Source: Desulfotalea psychrophila LSv54
Lineage (GTDB): Bacteria > Desulfobacterota > Desulfobulbia > Desulfobulbales > Desulfocapsaceae
DNA length: 32,000 bases
Direction of reading: 5' to 3'
Assembly (NCBI RefSeq): GCF_000025945.1
Contig: NC_006139.1
Location: 30,001 to 62,000 of the forward strand
Shown here: positions 6,604 to 22,450 of the stretch, one piece after another
How the letters are laid out: every line of letters starts with the position of its first letter
How positions within the stretch are numbered: the first letter of the stretch is position 1
Program-made: the position numbers and the translations under genes
The notes under the pieces: generated by a model
The model's database searches: none
What the model was told of the DNA's origin: nothing
The model's input: the letters and a program-made list of their open reading frames with translations, nothing else

Positions 6604-6700
6604 GCCTAATAAGTTATTATCCGGTTTCCTGATGTCATTCCAGGTAAACACAATTTGAAAACAATTTTTTTATCCATGGTACAGGTTTTTAACTGGGTAT
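6604..6700 (-). repeat. 3' half of an attC-like repeat; its 5' half is replaced by the shared module 6691-6766
   Basis: The minus strand reads ..AAATTGTTTTCAAATTGTGTTTACCTGGAATGACATCAGGAAACCGGATAATAACTTATTAGGC. It aligns with the 3' halves of the 4276-4394 and 5870-5984 copies. The terminal box reads ATTAGGC (6610-6604). Confidence 0.35.
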
Positions 6701-7565
6701 TACTACATGATCCAAATTCCTCGAATCTTCATAAATCAATTTACGGCTCTTGTTGTACAGAGAGGAGCGCCATATGAGAATCACTCGATACAATCCTCTA
6801 TCATCCACAACACTAAAGCACCAGTAAGAGCATAAGGCAAGAAGAATTTATCATGAAATATCAGCACCTTCTTCGCTCCGTTTCGGAACGGCCAGTGAAA
6901 CAGGTCGGGATGCAGGGCATGGGCTTGCAGGACAACATTCAGCACTTGAAAGAGGGCATTTTTAACAGGTTTTTTATGTCCAGGGATGGACGGTATGGCG
7001 CGGTGACAGGGATGCCAGGGAGCGGCTATGCCCATGACAGTGCGCAACCCAATATGGTGAAATGGTTGCGGCCGGGAGGGTGGCAACTGTCAATGGACAC
7101 GAATGAATCCTTGAGACTCTTTTTTTCTCCCTTTTCTTGATATGAACCAGGAAAAATGCGAGCATTAAACATTGGTATGGAGTGCAAACGTCTCTGCCAT
7201 ACAGATATGCAATATAAAGGCAGTGTTAAGCACGACCCGATTCATCATAAAGCCGGCTGCAACTTCAGGGCTTAACACAACCTTTTCACAATTTCCGACC
7301 TATAGCCAGAGGCTTATTTGAGAGGTCTGAGCTTCTGATATGGTGCATTTTCAAGACATTACGCAGCCAGGCTAACCGCCAGCACCTGCGTTTGTATAAT
7401 TGCCAGAGGAGCCAGAGCCGAACGGCTTGCCATCTTATCTGCATCGTAACCGAAATGAATAGCAATTGTTTCGGCGGCTGTCGAAAATGCTAAAAACCCA
7501 GATGAACTGAAAAGAAGCTGGCAACTATTGATTGATTCCAGTGATACCGGCAGACAGAGGTGAAG

Positions 7566-9341
7566 ATGAAAGATGATTCCGGGCCTTGCAAAGCGATCAC
7601 AAAGGCTGCCAATTCCTGGGCAGTGCAACCGAACCTCTTGGACTATGGCAAAACCTGTGACCAGTTTTCATGGGCAACAGCCCGTCGGGAATTGGACGGA
7701 CTGCCGGAAAACAAGGGTTTGAACATCGCCCATGAGGCTGTAGACCGTCATGCCAATGGCCCGCGGGGTGACCGCCTGGCCATACGCTGGCTGGGCAAGG
7801 ACGGCGGCGTTCGTGACTTCAGCTACTCAGACCTGAAGAGACAGAGCAACCGTTTTGCCAACGTGCTCAGGAAACTGGATATCGGCAGAGGAGAGCGGGT
7901 GTTCACCCTGGCAGGGCGGGTGCCCGAGCTATATTTCTCTGCCTTTGGCACCTGGAAGAACGGCAGCGTCTTCTGTCCACTGTTTTCCGCTTTTGGCTCG
8001 GAGCCAATCTATCAACGCCTGAGCAAGGGCGATGCCAAGGTCTTGGTAACCACCGAGCGGCTCTATAAACAGAAAGTCGCCGCTCTGCGCGAGCGACTGC
8101 CGCAGCTAAAACATATCCTGCTCATCGATGCGGCGCAAGATATCGGTGAAGGCCTCTGGTCGCTACCCAGACGTATGGAAGAGGCTGCGGACGCGTTTAT
8201 CATTCCACCGACTGACCCGGAGGATATGGCGATTGTCCATTTTACCAGTGGTACCACGGGGATGCCGAAGGGTGCTGTTCATGTACACAATGCGGTGCTT
8301 ACCCACTACCTGACCGGTAAGTACGTACTCGATTTTCACCCCGGAGATGTTTTCTGGTGCACCGCCGACCCGGGCTGGGTCTCCGGCACCTCCTACGGCA
8401 TTATCGCCCCTCTCGTTCACGGCGTAACCAACATCATCGACGAAGCAGAGTTCGATGCCAAGCGCTGGTACCAGCTGCTGGAGGAGCAGCAGGTAAATAT
8501 CTGGTACACAGCCCCCACAGCCATTCGGCGACTGATGCGCCTGGCCATCGATCCCACCAAACAATATGACCTGAGCCACCTGCGCTGCATCCATAGCGTC
8601 GGTGAACCGCTCAACCCCGAAGCCGTATCCTGGGGGCAGCAAAGTCTGGGCCTGCCGATCCATGACAACTGGTGGCAGACCGAAACAGGCGGCATTATGA
8701 TCGCCAATTACCCAGCCGTAGACATCCGCCCTGGTTCTATGGGCTTACCGCTGCCGGGGATCGAGGCGGCGATCGTGCGGCGCGGCACCGGGGAAAGGGT
8801 CGAAGCAGTTACCGAACCGGGCACCCAGGGCGAACTGGCGTTGCGGCCCGGCTGGCCCTCCATGTTCCGTGCTTATCTTCATGAGGAGCAGCGCTACCGC
8901 AAATGCTTTGTCGGCGGCTGGTACATAACCGGTGATCTGGCTTATCGCGATGCGGACGGCTACTTCTGGTTTGTCGGCCGTGCCGATGACATTATCAACA
9001 CCTCGGGCCATATGGTGGGACCGTTCGAAGTCGAAAGCGCGCTGATGGAGCATCCGGCGGTGACTGAAGCAGGCGTCATCGGCAAGCCCGAAGCATTGAT
9101 TGGTGAGTTGGTCAAGGCCTTCGTCACCCTCAAGCCGGGCACAAAACCCAGCGAAGAGCTGCGTCTGGAACTCATCGGCTTCGCGCGCAAGAAGCTTGGC
9201 TCGGCGGTGGCTCCGAAAGAGATTGAATTCCGTAACAATCTGCCCAAGACCCGCAGCGGCAAGATCATGCGGCGGCTGCTCAAGGCGCGTGAGCTGGGGC
9301 TCGCCGAGGGCGACACATCGACACTGGAGGTAGACGAATGA
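7566..9341 (+). CDS. acetyl-CoA synthetase-like AMP-forming acyl-CoA ligase
   Basis: ANL-superfamily motifs are present: '[12 protein letters not shown]', 'WQTETGG', '[23 protein letters not shown]' and '[11 protein letters not shown]'. The overall layout is like short AcsA/AcoE-type enzymes. ATG at 7566 is preferred over the listed GTG at 7560 (GAGG 6 nt upstream). The stop overlaps the next start (ATGA). Confidence 0.85.
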
Positions 9342-10345
9342 AGGTAAAAGCAACAGGCGGCCCGGCAGGGGCCGGGGTTGATCCTGCGCATGCGCGACAG
9401 CTGCTGTACCAGATGGTGCGCATACGGCGTTTTGAAGAGAAGGCTGCTGAACTCTACACCAAGATGAAGATCCGCGGCTTTCTGCATCTCTATATTGGCG
9501 AAGAGGCGGTGGCCGCCGGCGTGAGCGCGGCGCTTGAACCGGAGGATGCCACAGTGGCCACCTACCGCGAACACGGCAACGCCTTGGCCCGTGGCATATC
9601 CGCCGGCGCCATCATGGCGGAAATGTACGGCAAACAGGAGGGCTGCAGCCGGGGCCGAGGCGGGTCGATGCACATATTTGACGACAAGACCCGGTTCTAC
9701 GGCGGCAACGCCATCGTCGGCGGCGGCTTGCCACTGGCGGTGGGACTGGCCCTGGCTGACAAGATGCAGGGCAAAAAGCGTGTCACCTGCTGTTTCTTCG
9801 GTGACGGAGCCGTCTCCGAAGGGGAGTTTCACGAATCGATGAACCTGGCCGCCCTCTGGAACCTCCCGGTCCTTTTTATCTGCGAGAACAATCTTTATGC
9901 CATGGGCACCGCCTTGGAGCGGTCGCAGTCGGTCACCGATCTGACCCGTAAGGCGGTCAGCTACCGCATTGCCGCCTCAGCCGTGGACGGCATGGATGTA
10001 CTTGCCGTTGAGGCGGCGGCCAATGAAGCTGTGAACGCTGTGCGCTCGGGACAAAAACCGTACTTTCTGGAGTGCCGCACCTACCGTTTCCGGGCCCATT
10101 CGATGTTTGATCCGGAACTCTATCGGTCCAAGGCCGAGGTCGAAAAATGGAAGAAGCGTTGCCCCATCAGTTCCTTCGTCAAACGCCTCAAGAAGCAGGA
10201 CCTGCTGGACGATGGCGACGTGGAGGAACTGGAGCGGCAAGTTGCCAGGGAAATTGAAGAGGCGGTGGCTTTTGCCGAAAATGGTACCTGGGAGCCGGTG
10301 GAGGATCTGATGCGCTTTGTTTATTCGGAACGGGGGGCGGCATGA
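9338..10345 (+). CDS. thiamine-diphosphate-dependent 2-oxoacid (acetoin/pyruvate-type) dehydrogenase E1 alpha subunit
   Basis: TPP-binding motif '[39 protein letters not shown]' (GDG-x25-NN). Also '[10 protein letters not shown]', '[13 protein letters not shown]' and '[11 protein letters not shown]', typical of PdhA/AcoA. Confidence 0.9.
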
Positions 10346-10385
10346 GCGAAAAAAGCATGGGGGGCGGCATGAGCGAAAAAAGCAT
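10332..10385. repeat. perfect 2 x 27-bp tandem duplication spanning the E1alpha stop / E1beta start
   Basis: GGGGGGCGGCATGAGCGAAAAAAGCAT occurs at 10332-10358 and again at 10359-10385. This gives '[20 protein letters not shown]' and two equivalent G-rich-leader-plus-ATG start contexts (10342 and 10369). Confidence 0.95.
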
Positions 10386-11367
10386 GATTCAGACCACTTA
10401 TCGAGAAGCTGTGCGGGCGGCGATGCGCGAAGCGATGCAACGGGACGAAAGAGTGTTTCTTTTGGGGGAGGATGTCGGCCGGTACGGTGGCTGCTTTGCG
10501 GTCAGCAAGGGGCTGCTCGAAGAGTTCGGCCCGGAGCGGATCATCGACACGCCCCTGTCGGAGTCGGCCTTCACCGGGGCCGGCATTGGGGCTGCCCTCG
10601 GCGGCATGCGTCCCATCGTGGAGATTATGACGGTCAACTTCAGCCTTTTGGCAGCCGATCAGATCATCAACAATGCCGCAACATTTCTGCATATGTCGGG
10701 CGGGCTGTTCAATGTTCCTCTGGTTATCCGCATGTCCACCGGCGGCGGCAAGCAGCTGGCGGCCCAGCACTCTCACAGCCTGGAGGGGTGGTATGCCCAT
10801 ATTCCCGGCATCAAGGTGTTGACCCCGGCAACCCTGGAGGATGCGCGAGGCATGCTCTGGACCGCCCTGGAAGACCCCGATCCGGTGCTCATCTTTGAAC
10901 ACCAGGGGTTGCTGAACATGGAGGGGCCGCTGGCGGCAGACGCAGGAGCCGTGGACATTGATAGGGCCTTGATACGCCGGCGAGGCCGTGACCTGACGAT
11001 CATCACCTACGGCGCCAGCCTGTTCAAGGCTCTGGATGCGGCCGAAGCACTCGCCGGCGAAGGCATCGAGGCGGAAGTGATAGACCTGCGGACCCTGCGG
11101 CCGCTGGATGAGGAGACTTTCCTGTCCTCCATCGCAACTACGCACCGGGCACTGATCGTCGACGAAGGCTGGCGTAGCGGGGGAATTTCCGCAGAGATCA
11201 GTGCACGTATCATGGAAGGTGCCTTTTACGATCTGGATGCCCCCGTCGAGAGGATCTGTGGCGCCGAGGTGCCCATGCCCTACGCCAAACACATGGAGGA
11301 AGCTGCGATGCCGCAGGCTGAGACCATCGTCACAACCGCAAAAAGAATGGTAGGTTCCAATGACTGA
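10342..11367 (+). CDS. 2-oxoacid dehydrogenase E1 beta subunit (transketolase-like pyrimidine-binding and C-terminal domains)
   Basis: '[68 protein letters not shown]' and '[14 protein letters not shown]' are classic PdhB/AcoB blocks. The start could be 10342 or 10369 because of the duplication. Confidence 0.9.
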
Positions 11368-12553
11368 GTTCCGCATGCCCAGCCTGGGGGCCGACATGAA
11401 AGAGGGGCGGCTGGTCGAATGGAAGGTCAAGCTGGGCGACCAGGTCAAACGCGGCGATATCATTGCCGAGGTGGAAACCGCAAAAGGGGTGATCGAGATC
11501 GAGGTGTTTACCGACGGCGTCATCGAGCAGATCCTGGTCCAGCGGGGCGAGAAGGTTCCCGTGGGCACTGTGCTGGCGACCATCCGTACTGCAGGGGAGC
11601 AGGGCAAGGTGCCGGGTGAAGCAGCGCCGCCAGAACCGGTGTTCAAGTACAAGGCCTGCCTGATCGCGGCGCACCGTGAGGAACCGGCGGCAGAACCGCC
11701 TCCGGCTGTGGCCACTGCAGCGGGCAAAAGGCTGAGAATCTCGCCTCTGGCACGCAAGCTGGCAGCTGAACTGGCTGTCGAGCTTAGCACGGTGCAGGGT
11801 ACAGGGCAAGGCGGCGCCATCACCCACGCCGATATAAAACGTGCCGCAGCGACGAAAAAGGCATCCGCACCTCAGGTGCCATCTGCGCCAGGGGCCGCCA
11901 TGCGGCAGGCCATTGCAACCGCAATGGCCCGGTCCAACCGCGAAATTCCTCATTACTACCTGGCCACCCGCATCGATATGAGCAATACCTTGCGCTGGCT
12001 GGAGGCAGAGAACAAGAAACGTTCTATCAAGGAGCGGATATTGCCTGTGGTGCCGCTGATCAAAGCCACCGCCCTGGCCCTGGCGAAGGTGCCGGAACTC
12101 AACGGCTACTGGGTCGACAATCGCCAACAGCCCGAGGAAGCGGTGCATATCGGCTTCGTTATCTCGCTTCGGCAGGGCGGCCTGGTGGCACCGGCCATTC
12201 ACCATGCCGACCTCAAGAGCCTGCCCGAGCTGATGGAAGCCTTGTACGACCTGATTACCCGCGCCCGCAGCGGTCACCTGCGCAGCTCGGAGCTGACCGA
12301 TGCTACCGTTACCATAACAAGCTTGGGGGACCTGGGTGTTGAGGTGGTTCATGGCGTCATCTATCCCCCCCAAATAGCGCTGGTCGGGTTCGGTAAAATC
12401 CTGGAGCAGCCTTGGGCCAAGGACGGTATGCTCGGCATTCGTCCCATCCTGACAGCCACTCTGGCCGCAGACCACCGTGCCACCGACGCCCATCGCGGGG
12501 CCCAGTTTCTGGAAGCCCTCAACCACCACCTGCAAAAGCCGGAAGAGTTATGA
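11360..12553 (+). CDS. dihydrolipoamide acyltransferase (E2) with lipoyl, subunit-binding and catalytic domains
   Basis: Lipoyl domain '[14 protein letters not shown]'; subunit-binding domain '[34 protein letters not shown]'; catalytic '[17 protein letters not shown]' (DHR..D motif). It overlaps the E1beta stop by 8 nt. Confidence 0.9.
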
Positions 12554-12795
12554 CAGAAGAGCAAATCAAACAGACCATCCTCCGGGTCCTGCAGCCAATC
12601 ACCCCCGAAGCCGATTTAGATGAGTTGGCTGCCGACGAGGACATGCAGGAGGCCCTGGACATCGACTCTTTTGATGTCCTCACTTTTTTCGTCAAGCTCT
12701 ATGAAGAACTCGGGGTGGAAATTCCAGAGGAGGACTATGGACAGATCATTACCCTAAACGACCTCATCGGCTACCTCGCTGCCCGCATCGACTGA
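12550..12795 (+). CDS. small acidic acyl/peptidyl-carrier-protein-like protein (81 aa)
   Basis: The ATG at 12550 overlaps the E2 stop (ATGA). '[33 protein letters not shown]' has the DS(F/L) phosphopantetheine-attachment pattern and the acidic helix of ACPs. The longer listed ORF (from 12412) is out-of-frame overlap with E2. Confidence 0.65.
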
Positions 12796-12878
12796 GGTTT
12801 GGCAGGCCGGCCTGCACCTTGCCAATGCCCGTAACCGATCCATAGCCTGTTTTCAGGTTTCAACAGCAGAGGTCAAGG

Positions 12879-13895
12879 ATGGCCATGTTATTTATCGATA
12901 ATTCCGGCATTACCGACCCGCGCCTCAACCTGGCTTTCGAAGAATATTGCCTGAGGAATCTTGATCCGCAGCATGACTACCTGCTGTTGTATATCAATGA
13001 GCCTGCTGTCATAATAGGAAGAAGCCAGAATGCGTTTCAGGAAATCGATCACGCATTCGTCAGACAGAAGGAGATTCATGTCGTTCGCAGGATTTCGGGA
13101 GGTGGCGCCGTCTACCATGACCACGGGAATCTGAATTTTAGCTTCATCACCAAATACGAAAAATCGAACATACTTAATTTCAAAAAAATCACCGCGCCGG
13201 TTATCAAGGCATTGCAGGGCCTGGGCGTTCCAGCAGAACTTTCCGAGAGAAACAATATCTTCGCTTTCGGCATGAAAATATCTGGAATGGCCCAATATTC
13301 AACGAAAAAGAGCATAGTCAGCCACGGAACACTGCTTTTTGATGTGGAGATGCAAGACTTGGCTCGCGCCCTGAAGGGGAAAGCGGAGCAGACTGACTCC
13401 AGGGGCGTACCATCCGTCAGAAGCAGGGTGACAAACATCTGCGAGCACCTTGTAGGCTACATGGATATGGACACTTTCAAGAACAGTATGCAGGATTCTA
13501 TTTTTGCGCCGTACGGCGGCATGCGGGAAAAGAAACTGACCGACAAGGACTGGGAAAACATCCACCTGCTGTCCAAAGAGAAGTACCATGCCTGGGAATG
13601 GAACTATGGCAAATCCCCTGAATGCCGTATCCGCAGAACCGCCCGGTTGAATGACTGCCGGATTGACCTTGACCTAATGGTAAAGGGGGGGATTGTCAAA
13701 AACATCAAGATTTGTGGTGATAGTGCCTGTGGAAATGATATGGAAGGATTGGAAGCAGTGCTGACCGGTCGACGTTATGATATCGATGAATTCAAAAGGG
13801 CGCTATGTAGCGTCGATCTGCAGTGCTACTTCGGGCAACTGACGCCTGACAAGTTTGCGAACTGCCTTTGTGGCTGTTATCCGGAAGAATCTTGA
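12879..13895 (+). CDS. lplA: lipoate-protein ligase A
   Basis: 'DPRLNLAFEEYCL', 'INEPAVIIGRSQN' and 'VVRRISGGGAVYHDHGNLNFSFI' are LplA/LplJ signature blocks. Length 338 aa. GC is clearly lower than in the five genes upstream. Confidence 0.85.
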   Translation: MAMLFIDNSGITDPRLNLAFEEYCLRNLDPQHDYLLLYINEPAVIIGRSQNAFQEIDHAFVRQKEIHVVRRISGGGAVYHDHGNLNFSFITKYEKSNILNFKKITAPVIKALQGLGVPAELSERNNIFAFGMKISGMAQYSTKKSIVSHGTLLFDVEMQDLARALKGKAEQTDSRGVPSVRSRVTNICEHLVGYMDMDTFKNSMQDSIFAPYGGMREKKLTDKDWENIHLLSKEKYHAWEWNYGKSPECRIRRTARLNDCRIDLDLMVKGGIVKNIKICGDSACGNDMEGLEAVLTGRRYDIDEFKRALCSVDLQCYFGQLTPDKFANCLCGCYPEES

Positions 13896-14055
13896 GAGAA
13901 ATACCAAGTCCACGACGATAGAGTGTTTATGTCTCTGGACCGGCACTTGACGCCGGGAAACACAGGGTCTGAATGGTTCCCTGGCGGTTAATTGGTGGGC
14001 AATGCTTTATAGGACTCAGTATACCCTATGTGGCAGGATAATTTTCGCCCTGGGA

Positions 14056-15060
14056 CTACCTCTCCATCTCTGAACCAAAATATCGTTTCATTCGATAGAC
14101 AAACTGGTTCCAGGTTTTCGCATTTTGATATTTTTCTCTTTGATGCTGATAAAGACTTCGTTGTTTCTCTCTTTTCTTCAAATAACGCTCATGCCTCGCA
14201 CTATCTACACCTGCCTTACCAATCGCTTCGCCTTGATATTTCTCCTTTGTTTCATACTTTTCAGCTCTTTTTTCAAATTCACCGAACTTTTTTTCCAAAG
14301 AAGCTTTTGAAAATTCACGCCCCAAGCTACTGGCCTTGATGTGGTTTTGCTTTACCGATCCGATAGCAGAAATAACACAACCGTTGCCCCTTAACCTTAT
14401 AGTTAAACCATAAATCGAGAACCCTTCCTGCAACTCCTGCCACGTTGTGGCCCTCTCTAAAATATCCCTTAAAGGCTCTTTACGATCTAACACATAGTTG
14501 AGCAACGACTGCTTCCCTGCATGAGCATCTACGTTCTGGGCCTTGCTGTTAGAAGCTTGTTCTCCTGCCTTTTCTTTTATCGACCCCACTATTTTCAAAT
14601 TGTTTTCAATTTCTAGCTCTCTGCAAAGTTGAGTACATTTGATTTTATCCCAACCAGGGCTATTCTTTTTTTTCGTTAAAGGATCAATCATATTATAGGC
14701 AATATGAATATGCATATTGCTGGTATTATCATGAATTCCGCAGTGTCGCTGGTGTTCAGCAAAGCCAAGTATTTCAGCAAAATTTTGCTCAACTTTTTTA
14801 GAAAATTCTACATCTATTTTTTGTCGATCTTCTGGAGGAAATGAGATAATCAAGTGGTAGGTGTTCCCCTGGACGCGACGGTTAAAACTCTGTGTAACAA
14901 CCACTTCATCAATCGCTAAATTATAATCATCTTCGATTGCTCCCCCGACAGTCCATGTTGCCAGACACTTTTCGCCATCGTTGTTGGCATCAGCGATGTA
15001 GTTTGCCAACTTGCGATAAGACCCCTTTGCGCCTTTAGCCTGCTCAATCTTACATATCAT
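14056..15060 (-). CDS. MOB relaxase (MobA/VirD2-type relaxase/mobilisation nuclease domain)
   Basis: The N-terminal 'GSYRKLANYI' is a candidate catalytic Tyr region. 'YHLIISFPPED' and the 3-His motif 'HDNTSNMHIHIAYN' (HxDx5HxH) are present. It is short (334 aa) with no primase domain. Confidence 0.8.
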   Translation of the reverse strand: MICKIEQAKGAKGSYRKLANYIADANNDGEKCLATWTVGGAIEDDYNLAIDEVVVTQSFNRRVQGNTYHLIISFPPEDRQKIDVEFSKKVEQNFAEILGFAEHQRHCGIHDNTSNMHIHIAYNMIDPLTKKKNSPGWDKIKCTQLCRELEIENNLKIVGSIKEKAGEQASNSKAQNVDAHAGKQSLLNYVLDRKEPLRDILERATTWQELQEGFSIYGLTIRLRGNGCVISAIGSVKQNHIKASSLGREFSKASLEKKFGEFEKRAEKYETKEKYQGEAIGKAGVDSARHERYLKKREKQRSLYQHQREKYQNAKTWNQFVYRMKRYFGSEMER

Positions 15061-15410
15061 CTCAAGCTATCTTTCATCTTATTTATAATAGGGATTAATT
15101 TTTTTTGCGTCGATTCAATCTCTTTCAGTATCCTCCTTAACTCTATCGGATCAAAGTTAGTTGGGCTGTTGCCGCTCAAAGAAAATTTAAACAGCCCTCC
15201 AAGCCTCCCCAGATCCCCATTGACCTTCAAAAGATCCAGAAAAGATTGTCTTCCCTCCATAGAGTCAATTCTTTTACCCAATAAAGCCCTGCGGATAAAC
15301 TCAGACTGCGTTAACCCCGTATAATCAACTTTCTTGACAATCAACTCATATTCCTGAAGGGTGACATGTGCCTTCAGAGTACGATTTCTAACCACTTTCT
15401 TTCCAACCAT
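15057..15410 (-). CDS. MobC-like relaxosome accessory protein (ribbon-helix-helix type)
   Basis: 117 aa, 4-nt overlap with the relaxase start. 'RTLKAHVTLQEYELIVKKVDYTGLTQSEFIRRALLGK' fits the RHH pattern of MobC proteins placed immediately upstream of relaxases. Confidence 0.6.
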   Translation of the reverse strand: MVGKKVVRNRTLKAHVTLQEYELIVKKVDYTGLTQSEFIRRALLGKRIDSMEGRQSFLDLLKVNGDLGRLGGLFKFSLSGNSPTNFDPIELRRILKEIESTQKKLIPIINKMKDSLR

Positions 15411-16707: not shown

Positions 16708-17688
16708 ATGATAAAACGAGGTTTCAGCAATATTTTTTCAGAGAAGACATTTGCAAGCAACGAACAATTCAACACCGCCTGCAGACAGCTCAGAATCACT
16801 CAAGACGTACAATTAATCTACTCAAGCCTTCATTGGCTTTCAGTCAAGACGGGCTATGCATGGCCTTCTCAGGGCTTTCTCGCCAACGAGATAGGACGCT
16901 CACTTCGTACCGTTAAATCACATATAGCCAAGCTCAAGAGCCTTGGACTCATAACCGTCAAGCAACGCAACAACGGGCAGACTGCCTTATACTATCCACT
17001 GCCTTTAAGCGAAGTAGCAGAACACCTCCCAGGATGCTCCCAGAGCCAAGCTGATGAGATCAACGGGCAGGGTAAAGAAACCATCTCTCAGAAGGGCAAT
17101 AAGTGCACCACCACGAGGCACGATTCTGCCCACCTCCATAATATAGAGATTAGTACAAGTACTATTCCCCCTAAATCCCCCCCGGGGGAAGAGGCTGAGA
17201 TGTCCTTCCTGAAACTGTGGAAGGTGTGGCCCATCCAACAGGCGAAGAAGTCAGCCCGTAGAATCTTCATGCGTCTCTACCGTCGTGGAATTATTCCTTC
17301 CGTGGAACACCTTTTGAAAATTGTGCAGAACCTAAAGCAGTACGACAGGGCATGGATGAACGGCAAGGTTGCACAACTTCACCGATGGTTACGAGATGAA
17401 AGATGGACTGATAAGGCCTTTGCAGGCCTACAGCCTGCCCCTGTGGCAGCACCCAAAGTCTCTAAGGTGATAGAACCTGAATTCACACCAGAAGAGCATA
17501 GGGCAAGGTCCAGCTATCTGGAACTGTCAGTGGCGGTTATGACCCGGAGGGCCTCCACCGCATTGGATCATATCACAGAGAAGATTGTAGAAGGGTTAGG
17601 AGGGCTCCAGGGCTTACGAAAGAAGGGAATGAGGTGTTTGCCTATGGCAGATTTCCTCAAGGCATACAGAAGCTTGCAGGCTTTTTAA
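16708..17688 (+). CDS. plasmid/phage-type replication initiator with winged-helix HTH
   Basis: 'GYAWPSQGFLANEIGRSLRTVKSHIAKLKSLGLITVKQ' is the HTH typical of small-replicon Rep proteins. The C-terminal 'FLKLWKVWPIQQAKKSARRIF...WMNGKVAQLHRWLRDERWTD' is a block common in such initiators. It lies downstream of the iterons. Confidence 0.65.
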   Translation: MIKRGFSNIFSEKTFASNEQFNTACRQLRITQDVQLIYSSLHWLSVKTGYAWPSQGFLANEIGRSLRTVKSHIAKLKSLGLITVKQRNNGQTALYYPLPLSEVAEHLPGCSQSQADEINGQGKETISQKGNKCTTTRHDSAHLHNIEISTSTIPPKSPPGEEAEMSFLKLWKVWPIQQAKKSARRIFMRLYRRGIIPSVEHLLKIVQNLKQYDRAWMNGKVAQLHRWLRDERWTDKAFAGLQPAPVAAPKVSKVIEPEFTPEEHRARSSYLELSVAVMTRRASTALDHITEKIVEGLGGLQGLRKKGMRCLPMADFLKAYRSLQAF

Positions 17689-20104: not shown

Positions 20105-21415
20105 ACCTTCGAGGCCGTGGTCCAGAGCACCTGGACCAATGAGAATACAGGGATAAAGATGGCACAGTTCACCTCTCCCTGCAGGATGCCATGGGCCACC
20201 GGACCTTCGATGCCTACGATTTTTGTGCTTCACGCCATGGGCAGATCCTTCCCTTCCATGGTGAGCGAGCCATGGGCCACCCCGTACTCCACCAACGATG
20301 TGGCATTTTACCCTAGCAGTAATAAGCGCAGGTTTCCCGAAGCGCTGAAGAGGGTGCAGGTTCACACCACCTACTATAAGGATAAAATCCTCAAGGTGAA
20401 CTAGCATGACTAAAGATAGCCAAGAATTTGATTTCAACTCAGCCCTCAAAGCGCTTAAAGAGGGTAAGCCGCTACATGGCCCGCCCCCTTAATAAAAAAA
20501 CTTGCTGAAACAGCTCTTGAAGGTGAACTTGATTCTCACCTCGCCCAGACAATCACAGCTAATCGCAAGAACGGTAAAGGAAAAAAGACCATTAAATCAA
20601 TGGATGGCAACTTCGACCTTAAAACTCCAAGAGATCGTGATGGCAGCTTTACTCCCCAGCTTATCAAAAAGCATCAAACCACCCTGAGTGATGCTCTAGA
20701 GCAAAAAATCATTGCCCTTTATGGCCTTGGAATGAGCTACCGGGATATATCATCTCATATTGAAGATATGTATGGCCTAGAGGTCTCAACAGGCACTCTC
20801 AGCACAGTAACAGATAAGATATTACACACCGTTAAAGAATGGCAAGCACGGCCATTAGAGCGTGTGTACCCCATCGTTTGGCTGGATGCTATTCATTATA
20901 AAATTCGTGAACAAGGGACGGTGGTTAGCAAAGCCGTGTACACTATCCTGGGATTGAATATTGAAGGTAAGAAAGAAGTTCTTGGCTTAACAATTTCTGA
21001 CAGCGAAGGGGCTAAGTTTTGGCTCCAGGTTTTAACTGATCTTGCGAACAGAGGCGTTGAAGATATTCTTATCGCCTGTGTTGATGGGCTGAAAGGCTTC
21101 CCAGAGGCCATAGAAGTTGTTTTTCCACAAACTGAAATACAGCTCTGCATAGTGCACCAGATCCGCAACTCCTTGAAATATGTAGGCTCGAAAAACCAGA
21201 AGGAATTTATGGTAGATCTCAAACGAGTCTACAAAGCAACAACGAAAGATCTGGCTGAATCTGAGTTGGATATCTTAGAAGAAAAATGGAACGAAAAATA
21301 CCCTATAGTCATAAAATCATGGAGAAATAACTGGGAAAGATTAAGCCATTATTTTAAATATCCAGAAGATATCAGGCGCATCATCTATACGACTAACACC
21401 ATTGAGGCAGTGCAT

Positions 21416-22450
21416 GGCCTTGTTGCACAAATAGAAGTTGCTAGCATTGCTCGATGATGTTTTCTTGTAACACACAGAAAACATTGGGAGAGTTATGAGA
21501 GAGCGCAGGGGAAAAATCAAAAATTGGCCGGAATATAACAGAGCATTGAAGCAACGAGGCTCGGTGACATTTTGGGTGGACAAGAAAGCGATTGAAAGTT
21601 GGTACAGTACGACTGTATCAGAGCAGCGTGGCCGTGTCGCAAGTACGCGGATGATGCACGACCTGTTTGATGTGGAACCATTTATGGACTGTCTCTCAAG
21701 GGTACAGAAGGTTTTCTAAATTCACTTTTTGAACTGATGGATATCGACCTCCAGGCACCTGATTATACAAGTGCCAGCAGGCGTGCCCAAACAGTTAAGG
21801 TAAATTACAGGCTACCAAGCCGTGGGCCGATTAAGCATATCGTCATCGATTCAACGGGCCTTAAAGTCTACGGAGAAGGAGAATGGCGTGTACGGAAGCA
21901 CGGTGCAGGAAAACGTAGAACTTGGCGTAAGCTTCATCTTGCTATTGATACAGAAACTCATCAAATTATAAGTGGTGAAATTTCGATGGAGTGGGTGCAT
22001 GATTCCAAGGTGTTGGGGCCGTTATTAAATCCTCTTCGACGACGCATAGAGCAGATATCAGGCGATGGTGCCGGATACGAAAGAGTGCTATGCCGTGGCC
22101 GAGAGAAAAGGTGCTATTGTAACTATTCCACCACGGAAAAATGCTGCTATGTGGGAGGAAGGCCATCCAAGAAATGAGGCTGTAGGAGCATTGCGAAAAG
22201 GTGAGTTAAAAGAGTGGAAAGCAAGCACAGCGTATCATCAAAGGTCTCTTGCTGAAACAGCGATGTATCGCTACAAACAGTTGATCAGTGGTAAATTAAG
22301 CCTCCGCGAGGAGGCAAGCAGGTAGGGCTGCGATCAAGGCTTTGAACAAAATTAATACGTTAGGGATGCCTGTTCGAGAGGCTGTTTGCTAAGATGGAAT
22401 GGCGTAGAGGGATGATAGTTTTCTTTCCTCATGATTTATGCAACAAGGCC
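21416..22450 (+). mobile_element. IS903-group (IS5 family) insertion sequence, 1035 bp, with 9-bp target-site duplication
   Basis: The inverted repeats are GGCCTTGTTGCACAAATAGAAG (21416-) and CATGATTTATGCAACAAGGCC (-22450). The direct repeat GCAGTGCAT is at 21407-21415 and 22451-22459. A 9-bp duplication and ~1.05 kb size are characteristic of IS903. Confidence 0.9.
21495..22325 (+). pseudogene. IS903-group DDE transposase gene with at least two frameshifts
   Basis: Three ORF pieces (21495-21719, 21737-22177, 22065-22325) read 'KNWPEYNRALKQRGSVTFWVD', 'PDYTSASRRAQTVKV', 'HIVIDSTGLKVYGEGEWRVRKHGAGKRRTWRKLHLAID', 'GDGA', 'IPPRKNA' and 'YHQRSLAETAMYRYKQL'. These are the conserved IS903/IS5 blocks spread over different frames. 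Confidence 0.85.

Follow-up and report, generated by a model that had tools for sequence, protein, structure and literature searches.

The large plasmid of Desulfotalea psychrophila LSv54 carries a six-gene cassette which, in our tentative reading, encodes a pyruvate dehydrogenase (PDH)-type acetyl-transfer complex that would hand acetyl groups to an acyl carrier protein (ACP) of its own and would rely on a dihydrolipoamide dehydrogenase (E3) supplied in trans, a reading to which we give nearly, though not quite, an even chance. The cassette occupies positions 7566-13895 of the window, by which we mean the whole 32,000-nucleotide stretch analysed (C2:30001-62000), and its six genes, all on the plus strand, encode in order an AcsA-type ligase, E1alpha, E1beta, E2, ACP and the lipoate-protein ligase LplA. 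The genome consists of three replicons of 3,523,383 bp (46.8% G+C), 121,587 bp (43.6%) and 14,664 bp (28.6%), and the window belongs to the 121,587-bp plasmid ('plasmid large'); a second set of the six genes lies on the chromosome (C1). 2-Oxoacid dehydrogenase complexes are E1/E2/E3 machines that transfer acyl groups to coenzyme A (CoA). The AcsA-E1-E2-ACP cassette is widespread and apparently unstudied, and the facts that it never comes with E3, always comes with its own ACP and acetyl-CoA synthetase, and crosses phyla on plasmids and islands point to an undescribed way of handling acetyl groups. To our knowledge, the sole counterpart to have been characterised belongs to a rare pathway for natural products (Qnc/Scl). 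Desulfotalea is a strict anaerobe that has no other E1/E2, has kept two copies of the cassette and has added a lipoate ligase to it, and so offers an uncluttered setting for studying the function of the complex. How the carrier handles the acetyl group is a question that mass spectrometry of five or six recombinant proteins could answer directly.

The genes were assigned with family models. The first gene (7566-9341) encodes an acetyl-CoA synthetase (AMP-forming, Bacillus AcsA type; NF003313, 941 bits against a cut-off of 729), starting at an in-frame ATG at 7566 with GAGGTG just 5' of it and an alternative GTG two codons earlier at 7560. It is ~55% identical to a solved Bacillus-type Acs (PDB 9g79, 567 bits) and keeps every canonical motif in that alignment, with the A10 motif PKTRSGK intact. 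It is followed by a thiamine diphosphate (ThDP)-binding PDH-type E1alpha (9338-10345; TIGR03182, 470.4 bits against 393.85; PF00676) and a PDH-type E1beta (10342-11367; NF006667, 410.4 bits against 321; PF02779 and PF02780). As E1alpha passes the cut-off of the PDH equivalog, pyruvate is the likely substrate. The E2 dihydrolipoamide acyltransferase (11360-12553) contains a lipoyl domain (PF00364), a peripheral subunit-binding domain (PSBD, PF02817) and a catalytic domain (PF00198), keeps the lipoyl Lys (ETAKG) and the catalytic His/Asp (DHRATDAH), and has its best PDB matches among mammalian and Geobacillus E2p proteins. It reaches 236 bits on the E2p equivalog TIGR01349, below the cut-off of 445. 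Neighbouring core genes overlap, by ATGA between AcsA and E1alpha, between E1alpha and E1beta and between E2 and ACP, and by 8 nt between E1beta and E2. The gene order, the overlap between E2 and ACP and the lack of a clustered E3 gene, which an earlier note had read from the sequence, were all borne out, with TIGR01350 (E3) matching on the chromosome only.

The same note had set the locus against acetoin dehydrogenase operons, and this framing did not hold. The AcoA/AcoB/AcoC/AcoL system does share with the cassette E1alpha and E1beta, a lipoylated E2 and, in some species, a link to an acetyl-CoA synthetase (acoE or acsA). However, the cassette E2 fits the AcoC model NF011457 over its lipoyl domain only (84.6 bits against a cut-off of 307), neither acoL nor acoR accompanies the cassette, and E1alpha passes the PDH model, and acetoin dehydrogenase was therefore rejected. 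The heterotetrameric-E1 PDH complexes of mitochondria, Alphaproteobacteria and Gram-positive bacteria are nearer, since the E1 subunits pass PDH cut-offs and E2 has the lipoyl, PSBD and catalytic domains. The cassettes differ from them in lacking E3, in having an ACP translationally coupled to E2, in always including AcsA, in an E2 below the E2p equivalog cut-off, and in being mobile, on plasmids and in islands of distinct G+C content. Because of the missing E3 and the low E2p score, the cassette is not a complete PDH operon.

The fifth gene (12550-12795) encodes a dedicated ACP of 81 aa, whose ATG overlaps the E2 stop. The protein had been proposed to be a phosphopantetheine-binding carrier, and this is supported by its match to PF00550 (33 bits against 20.8), by an attachment-type Ser and by a confident fold. 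Among 26 family members Ser40 is invariant, and its motif LDIDSxD (LDIDSFD here) and the motif VEIPExDY are invariant or nearly so. The AlphaFold2 model has a pLDDT of 91.6, places Ser40 at the opening of helix 40-54 and superposes on solved ACPs with TM-scores of 0.86-0.89; the nearest solved ACPs by sequence include ACP subunits of complex I. The host has a paralogue (87 bits with the cassette ACP profile) in a chromosomal cluster at C1:2746053-2751872 (L042:7054-12873) which encodes a ketosynthase (KS), this ACP, two CrtI-like FAD oxidoreductases, FabG and a FabA-like protein. More broadly, the profile matches KS-linked paralogues (~85 bits) and ACPs of genomes lacking any E2 (G090 and G398), which indicates that the protein comes from a genuine acyl-carrier lineage and that the profile alone is no marker of the cassette. 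Similar ACPs were found across the host's order in the absence of E2.

A natural fusion also ties the carrier to E2. A fusion search with a single sequence found none, and a profile search returned 27 long proteins, one of which, P0109 (490 aa), joins E2 cleanly to ACP through a linker of 5 residues; its residues 1-400 are 51% identical to the window E2 and its residues 406-481 are 41% identical to the window ACP. Seven further candidates (P0096, P0103, P0101, P0095, P0104, P0093 and P0094) were discounted as frameshift read-throughs, as an out-of-frame stretch rich in R, P and G precedes the ACP in each. Such read-through across the E2/ACP junction is favoured by the ATGA overlap. In public metagenome gene calls, many 'E2-ACP', 'E1alpha-ACP' and 'E1beta-ACP' proteins (P0093-P0104) look like frameshift artefacts, which arise easily where alternative frames stay open in GC-rich DNA, and artefactual fusions of this type should not serve as Rosetta-stone evidence.

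More than 20 loci elsewhere have the core of AcsA, E1alpha, E1beta, E2 and ACP with the ACP gene immediately behind E2, so the arrangement is not due to chance. In every cassette examined whose locus is complete, ACP directly follows E2, as would be expected from the conserved pairing that the earlier note had suggested looking for, and in loci of Desulfobacterota, Verrucomicrobiota, Bacteroidota and Alphaproteobacteria its start lies at the E2 stop or within a few bases of it. The cassette was found in five further Desulfobacterota genomes, in eight Prosthecobacter/Verrucomicrobiaceae metagenome-assembled genomes (MAGs), on the Methylocystis rosea plasmid pGW6_1 and on Leisingera plasmids, which encode E1alpha and E1beta as a single fusion protein of 665 aa. 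In a Chitinophagales MAG, AcsA comes last and ACP lies directly upstream of it, and in Anaeromyxobacter PSR-1 (Myxococcota) the order matches until the contig ends inside E2, with ACP beyond view. Within the host's family, 4 of the 24 other genera sampled have the cassette, and a genome of the same genus is without it. No E3 gene was present within any of the homologous cassettes examined. Full-text literature searches, whose coverage is incomplete, returned no description of this gene combination.

Two observations concern other members of the family. The E2 proteins of seven verrucomicrobial (Prosthecobacter) cassettes (L012, L014-L017, L019 and L020) have two PSBD (E1/E3-binding) domains in tandem. 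In genome G022, an AcsA fragment (L038:1-216, contig C14) lies 0.5 kb past the cassette and is 87.5% identical to residues 453-524 of the window AcsA, which hints that a second copy, closer to that of Desulfotalea, may exist there.

Elsewhere, the recurrent neighbours of the cassette are phosphoenolpyruvate (PEP) synthase, universal stress proteins (USPs), a family II pyrophosphatase, Hsp20, a CBS protein and Crp/Fnr; none of these stress-type neighbours occurs in this window. The USP, Hsp20, PEP synthase and Crp/Fnr genes near the cassette in other hosts recall the lxa locus of Burkholderia cenocepacia, a low-oxygen/dormancy island, whereas the neighbours in the window are a relaxase and integron-type cassettes rather than stress genes. 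The possibility that the cassette forms part of the described lxa island was rejected, since the account of that locus (PMC3721108) mentions neither PDH nor ACP genes.

TIGR01350 has no match on the plasmid, and the sole host E3 above its cut-off (470 bits against 409) is encoded at C1:330731-332143, divergent from gcvT-gcvH-gcvPA-gcvPB-lipB-lipA (C1:323.8-332.1 kb). Since this single E3 lies in the glycine-cleavage locus, E3 in trans would here mean the glycine-cleavage L-protein. All 10 cassette-bearing Desulfobacterota genomes checked (the host G000, G002, G004, G006, G022, G230, G254, G281, G282 and G347, which are relatives and hence not independent) encode, outside the cassette, one or more proteins that exceed the TIGR01350 cut-off. 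Supply of E3 in trans, which had been raised as a simple explanation, is thus feasible; the tally fits it and is no proof that the E3 is used. A PF00198 scan of the whole genome found the two cassette E2s only, aceE was not found in the host genome, and tblastn revealed no further E1alpha/E1beta pair. The cassette E2 is likewise the only E2 of its genome in G254 and G347. In addition, the host has one phosphopantetheinyl transferase (PPTase; PF01648), a chromosomal two-domain Sfp-type open reading frame of 273 aa (C1:1025843-1026448), and no separate AcpS-type gene was detected in the genome with PF01648. The PPTase and lpd genes that the earlier note had suggested checking for are both present in the genome, and this single PPTase may serve AcpP, the ACP of the KS cluster and both cassette ACPs.

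A precedent for E1/E2-like proteins loading an ACP, raised in the earlier note, is indeed described in PMC6335953. There, QncN/QncL/QncM of quinocarcin biosynthesis and the four-protein SclQ1-4 of scleric acid biosynthesis pass a ThDP-bound C2 unit to a lipoyl arm and from there to an ACP. By these descriptions, both systems resemble the cassette in combining a ThDP-binding E1alpha-like protein, an E1beta-like protein, an E2-like protein with lipoyl and acyltransferase parts and a small ACP, with no E3 in the cluster. SclQ2, SclQ3, SclQ4 and SclQ1 have 305, 338, 386 and 76 aa (PMC6335953), compared with 335, 341, 397 and 81 aa for the corresponding cassette proteins. In contrast to the cassette, Qnc and Scl are described there as belonging to nonribosomal peptide synthetase (NRPS) clusters that also encode a PPTase and an enzyme using the acyl-ACP, and their glycolyl unit is derived from a ketose phosphate. 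The cassette for its part has an E1alpha of true PDH type by score, an E2 with a PSBD and AcsA as a partner, and no NRPS or polyketide synthase neighbour. That E1alpha exceeds the PDH equivalog cut-off argues against a closer sequence kinship with Qnc/Scl than with PDH, and without an NRPS context or a PPTase and with a PDH-type E1, the cassette cannot be counted as a biosynthetic module of the Qnc type. In its mode of working it comes closest to a cross between the PDH complex and Qnc/Scl.

The strict coupling of E2 and ACP together with the natural fusion suggests, by analogy with Qnc/Scl, that lipoyl-E2 acetylates the ACP. The order of events that we infer begins with LplA, which would lipoylate the lipoyl domain of E2. 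E1alpha/E1beta would then decarboxylate pyruvate and reductively acetylate lipoyl-E2, and the E2 catalytic domain would transfer acetyl to the thiol of the phosphopantetheine on ACP, and possibly to CoA as well, much as the E2-like part of QncL is described to load QncM. AcsA would link the acetyl-thioester pool with free acetate, either feeding or draining it, and the glycine-cleavage L-protein, as the sole E3 of the host, would re-oxidise the dihydrolipoyl arm.

Several observations weigh against an acetyl-transfer complex serving its own ACP. AcsA scores as a canonical acetate-CoA ligase, and CoA may be the sole acceptor. No ACP-consuming enzyme (KS, condensation domain or acyltransferase) is encoded in or beside the cassette. 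The clean E2::ACP fusion is one case, most other apparent fusions being frameshift read-throughs. The host's own pyruvate:ferredoxin oxidoreductase (PFOR, 1769 bits) and AckA (496 bits) give it its normal route from pyruvate to acetate, to which the cassette is accessory. In the plasmid E2, Ala replaces the Gly of DHRxxDG that is invariant elsewhere (window 12485-12505, E2 residues ~376-382). Finally, the ACP genes of the plasmid and chromosomal copies differ by 7 nonsynonymous and 2 synonymous changes, giving from these small counts a ratio of nonsynonymous to synonymous substitution rates (dN/dS) of ~1.

Some of these points lead to a plainer account, in which the cassette would be an accessory PDH with an acetyl-CoA synthetase, both supplying acetyl-CoA, CoA would be the sole acceptor, the host E3 would complete the cycle, and ACP would be structural or regulatory, for instance sensing acyl status like mitochondrial ACP. 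The same E1 and AcsA scores that clear the PDH and acetate-CoA ligase cut-offs speak for it, as do the PSBD and catalytic His/Asp kept by E2, the E3 available in every cassette genome checked and the presence of structural complex-I subunits among the ACPs nearest by sequence. Moreover, a review (PMC4224046) already enters DPPB38-40 of the large plasmid as E1/E2 of the pyruvate dehydrogenase complex, with the ACP unmentioned. Nevertheless, this account leaves unexplained both why every cassette, across phyla, couples the translation of E2 to that of an ACP with the Ser and why the cassette never carries E3, and it sits poorly with an E2 score some way below the PDH E2 equivalog cut-off; we regard it as rather unlikely.

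The strict conservation of AcsA, equal to that of ACP, and the Chitinophagales locus with ACP directly upstream of AcsA raise a different option, namely that AcsA rather than E2 loads ACP, by adenylating acetate and acetylating holo-ACP. E1/E2 would then use acetyl-ACP, for instance by passing its acetyl group back to dihydrolipoyl-E2, or AcsA would run backwards, converting acetyl-ACP, AMP and pyrophosphate (PPi) to acetate and ATP; the PEP synthase and USP neighbours elsewhere, suggestive of energy-stress metabolism, agree with such a role. We consider this decidedly unlikely, as AcsA retains the complete canonical motifs of the solved Bacillus-type Acs and is ~55% identical to it, no AcsA-ACP fusion was seen in the profile search for long proteins, and the family II pyrophosphatase beside several Prosthecobacter cassettes argues against a PPi-driven reversal there. 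A bolder form of the preferred reading, in which E2 does load the carrier, would make the five core proteins a CoA-free machine: E1/E2 would load the acetyl group of pyruvate on ACP, and AcsA would work either in reverse, from acetyl-ACP, AMP and PPi to acetate and ATP, or forward, charging ACP with acetate. This form we hold to be unlikely. If it were true, the machine would be a new kind of substrate-level energy module or acetyl buffer that serves under stress and travels by horizontal transfer.

The sixth gene (12879-13895) encodes a lipoate-protein ligase (TIGR00545, 379 bits against 280) with catalytic (PF21948) and C-terminal (PF10437) domains. LplA is joined to the cassette only in the two copies of this genome and is absent from all other cassettes examined, and homologues were found in 2 of 40 genomes of the host's relatives, at 36-38% identity. 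Because of this absence and rarity, we consider LplA a separate, host-specific addition, as its lower G+C content also suggests, and its recruitment in this host fits selection for a lipoylated, working E2. The association could alternatively mean that ACP serves cofactor supply, carrying octanoate for lipoylation of the foreign E2 instead of acetyl groups, and the closest host paralogue, in a KS/FabG/FabA cluster, shows that the family can carry fatty acyl chains. However, LplA uses free lipoate and not acyl-ACP, most cassettes are without a lipoylation gene, and nothing in the cassette would make octanoyl-ACP, which leaves this idea highly improbable.

The chromosomal copy was located by tblastn at C1:2382982-2389287. 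The proteins of the two copies are 98% (AcsA), 97% (E1alpha), 97% (E1beta), 92% (E2), 91% (ACP) and 98% (LplA) identical. The duplicated DNA spans 6.85 kb (window 7079-13930) at 96.3% identity and breaks off abruptly at both ends, the similarity stopping at 13930 after a final shared 35 nt (13896..13930, plus strand) beyond LplA. The differences cluster in the linker region of E2 and where E2 ends and ACP begins. The sole indel is a perfect 27-bp tandem duplication (GGGGGGCGGCATGAGCGAAAAAAGCAT x2; 10332..10385, plus strand) over the E1alpha stop and the E1beta start, confined to the plasmid copy. Both frames stay intact, and the duplication either makes E1beta 9 residues longer or provides a second E1beta start, and because the chromosomal copy lacks it, this 27-bp repeat arose later than the duplication of the unit.

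These differences would also suit a plasmid copy that is a redundant duplicate drifting towards loss of function. Besides the 27-bp duplication and the ACP dN/dS, the PFOR and AckA of the host favour such decay, as does the altered DHRxxDG motif, which is found in the plasmid copy alone: in the alignment, Gly (DHRATDGH or DHRVTDGH) stands there in the chromosomal twin and in each of 14 other cassette E2s. Judged from the alignment, this Gly-to-Ala change is private to the plasmid E2 and may be mildly impairing. Against decay, all six reading frames are intact, the 27-bp duplication preserves the frame, and a motif alignment found the other catalytic motifs of the cassette all intact. Furthermore, dN/dS between the copies is 0.09 for AcsA, 0.22 for E1alpha, 0.14 for E1beta, 0.37 for E2 and 0.27 for LplA, and AcsA and E1 are under purifying selection. 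A decaying duplicate therefore seems improbable to us.

The six-gene block is a foreign, horizontally acquired and mobile cassette, of which the copy in the window is plasmid-borne. Its G+C content is 52-62%, with 59-62% in the four large core genes; LplA has 48.5% and the flanks have 36-40%. The cassettes of the family relatives sampled in Desulfobacterota and of the Chitinophagales MAG likewise lie 4-17 points above their flanks, whereas those of Verrucomicrobia and Alphaproteobacteria mostly equal theirs. The left flank is an integron-type cassette array, and the right flank encodes a MobA/VirD2 relaxase, NikA and a Rep protein. Nucleotide searches of the plasmid backbone gave no match in PLSDB, and relatives of the relaxase reach only ~34% identity.

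Upstream of acsA, both copies of the 6.85-kb unit share a leader (7079..7559, plus strand; 45% G+C) within which the promoter presumably lies. Promoter and terminator scans gave no more sites than shuffled sequence, an Rfam search of window 6600-14200 returned no match, and FNR/CRP-type boxes upstream of acsA were not enriched in 16 cassettes (4 observed, 2.5 +/- 1.6 in shuffled sequence). With regard to the idea that the 6.85-kb unit is an integron gene cassette, which would be bounded by an attC site with a GTTRRRY core, no palindrome of attC size was found inside the shared sequence at the unit ends, 7079 and 13930. The upstream end of the chromosomal copy is directly abutted by a truncated pair of dispersed repeats (C1:2389769-2389972), a repeat also found in the plasmid array.

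Defence and mobility genes surround the cassette at window 41-739, 2286-2981, 14056-15410, 16708-17688 and 20600-22177. They comprise a GmrSD C-terminal domain protein, an RnlA-like toxin, the MobA/VirD2 relaxase with NikA, a helix-turn-helix Rep-like protein, an IS256-family (Mutator) transposase and a DDE_Tnp_1 fragment. Two short repeats at window 869-977 and 1011-1230, which recur at 21416-21635 and 22260-22450, belong to a dispersed family with ~11-13 chromosomal and 5-6 plasmid copies, often paired and 0.2-1.1 kb apart. These dispersed repeats could be a miniature inverted-repeat transposable element or the end of an insertion sequence rather than attC.

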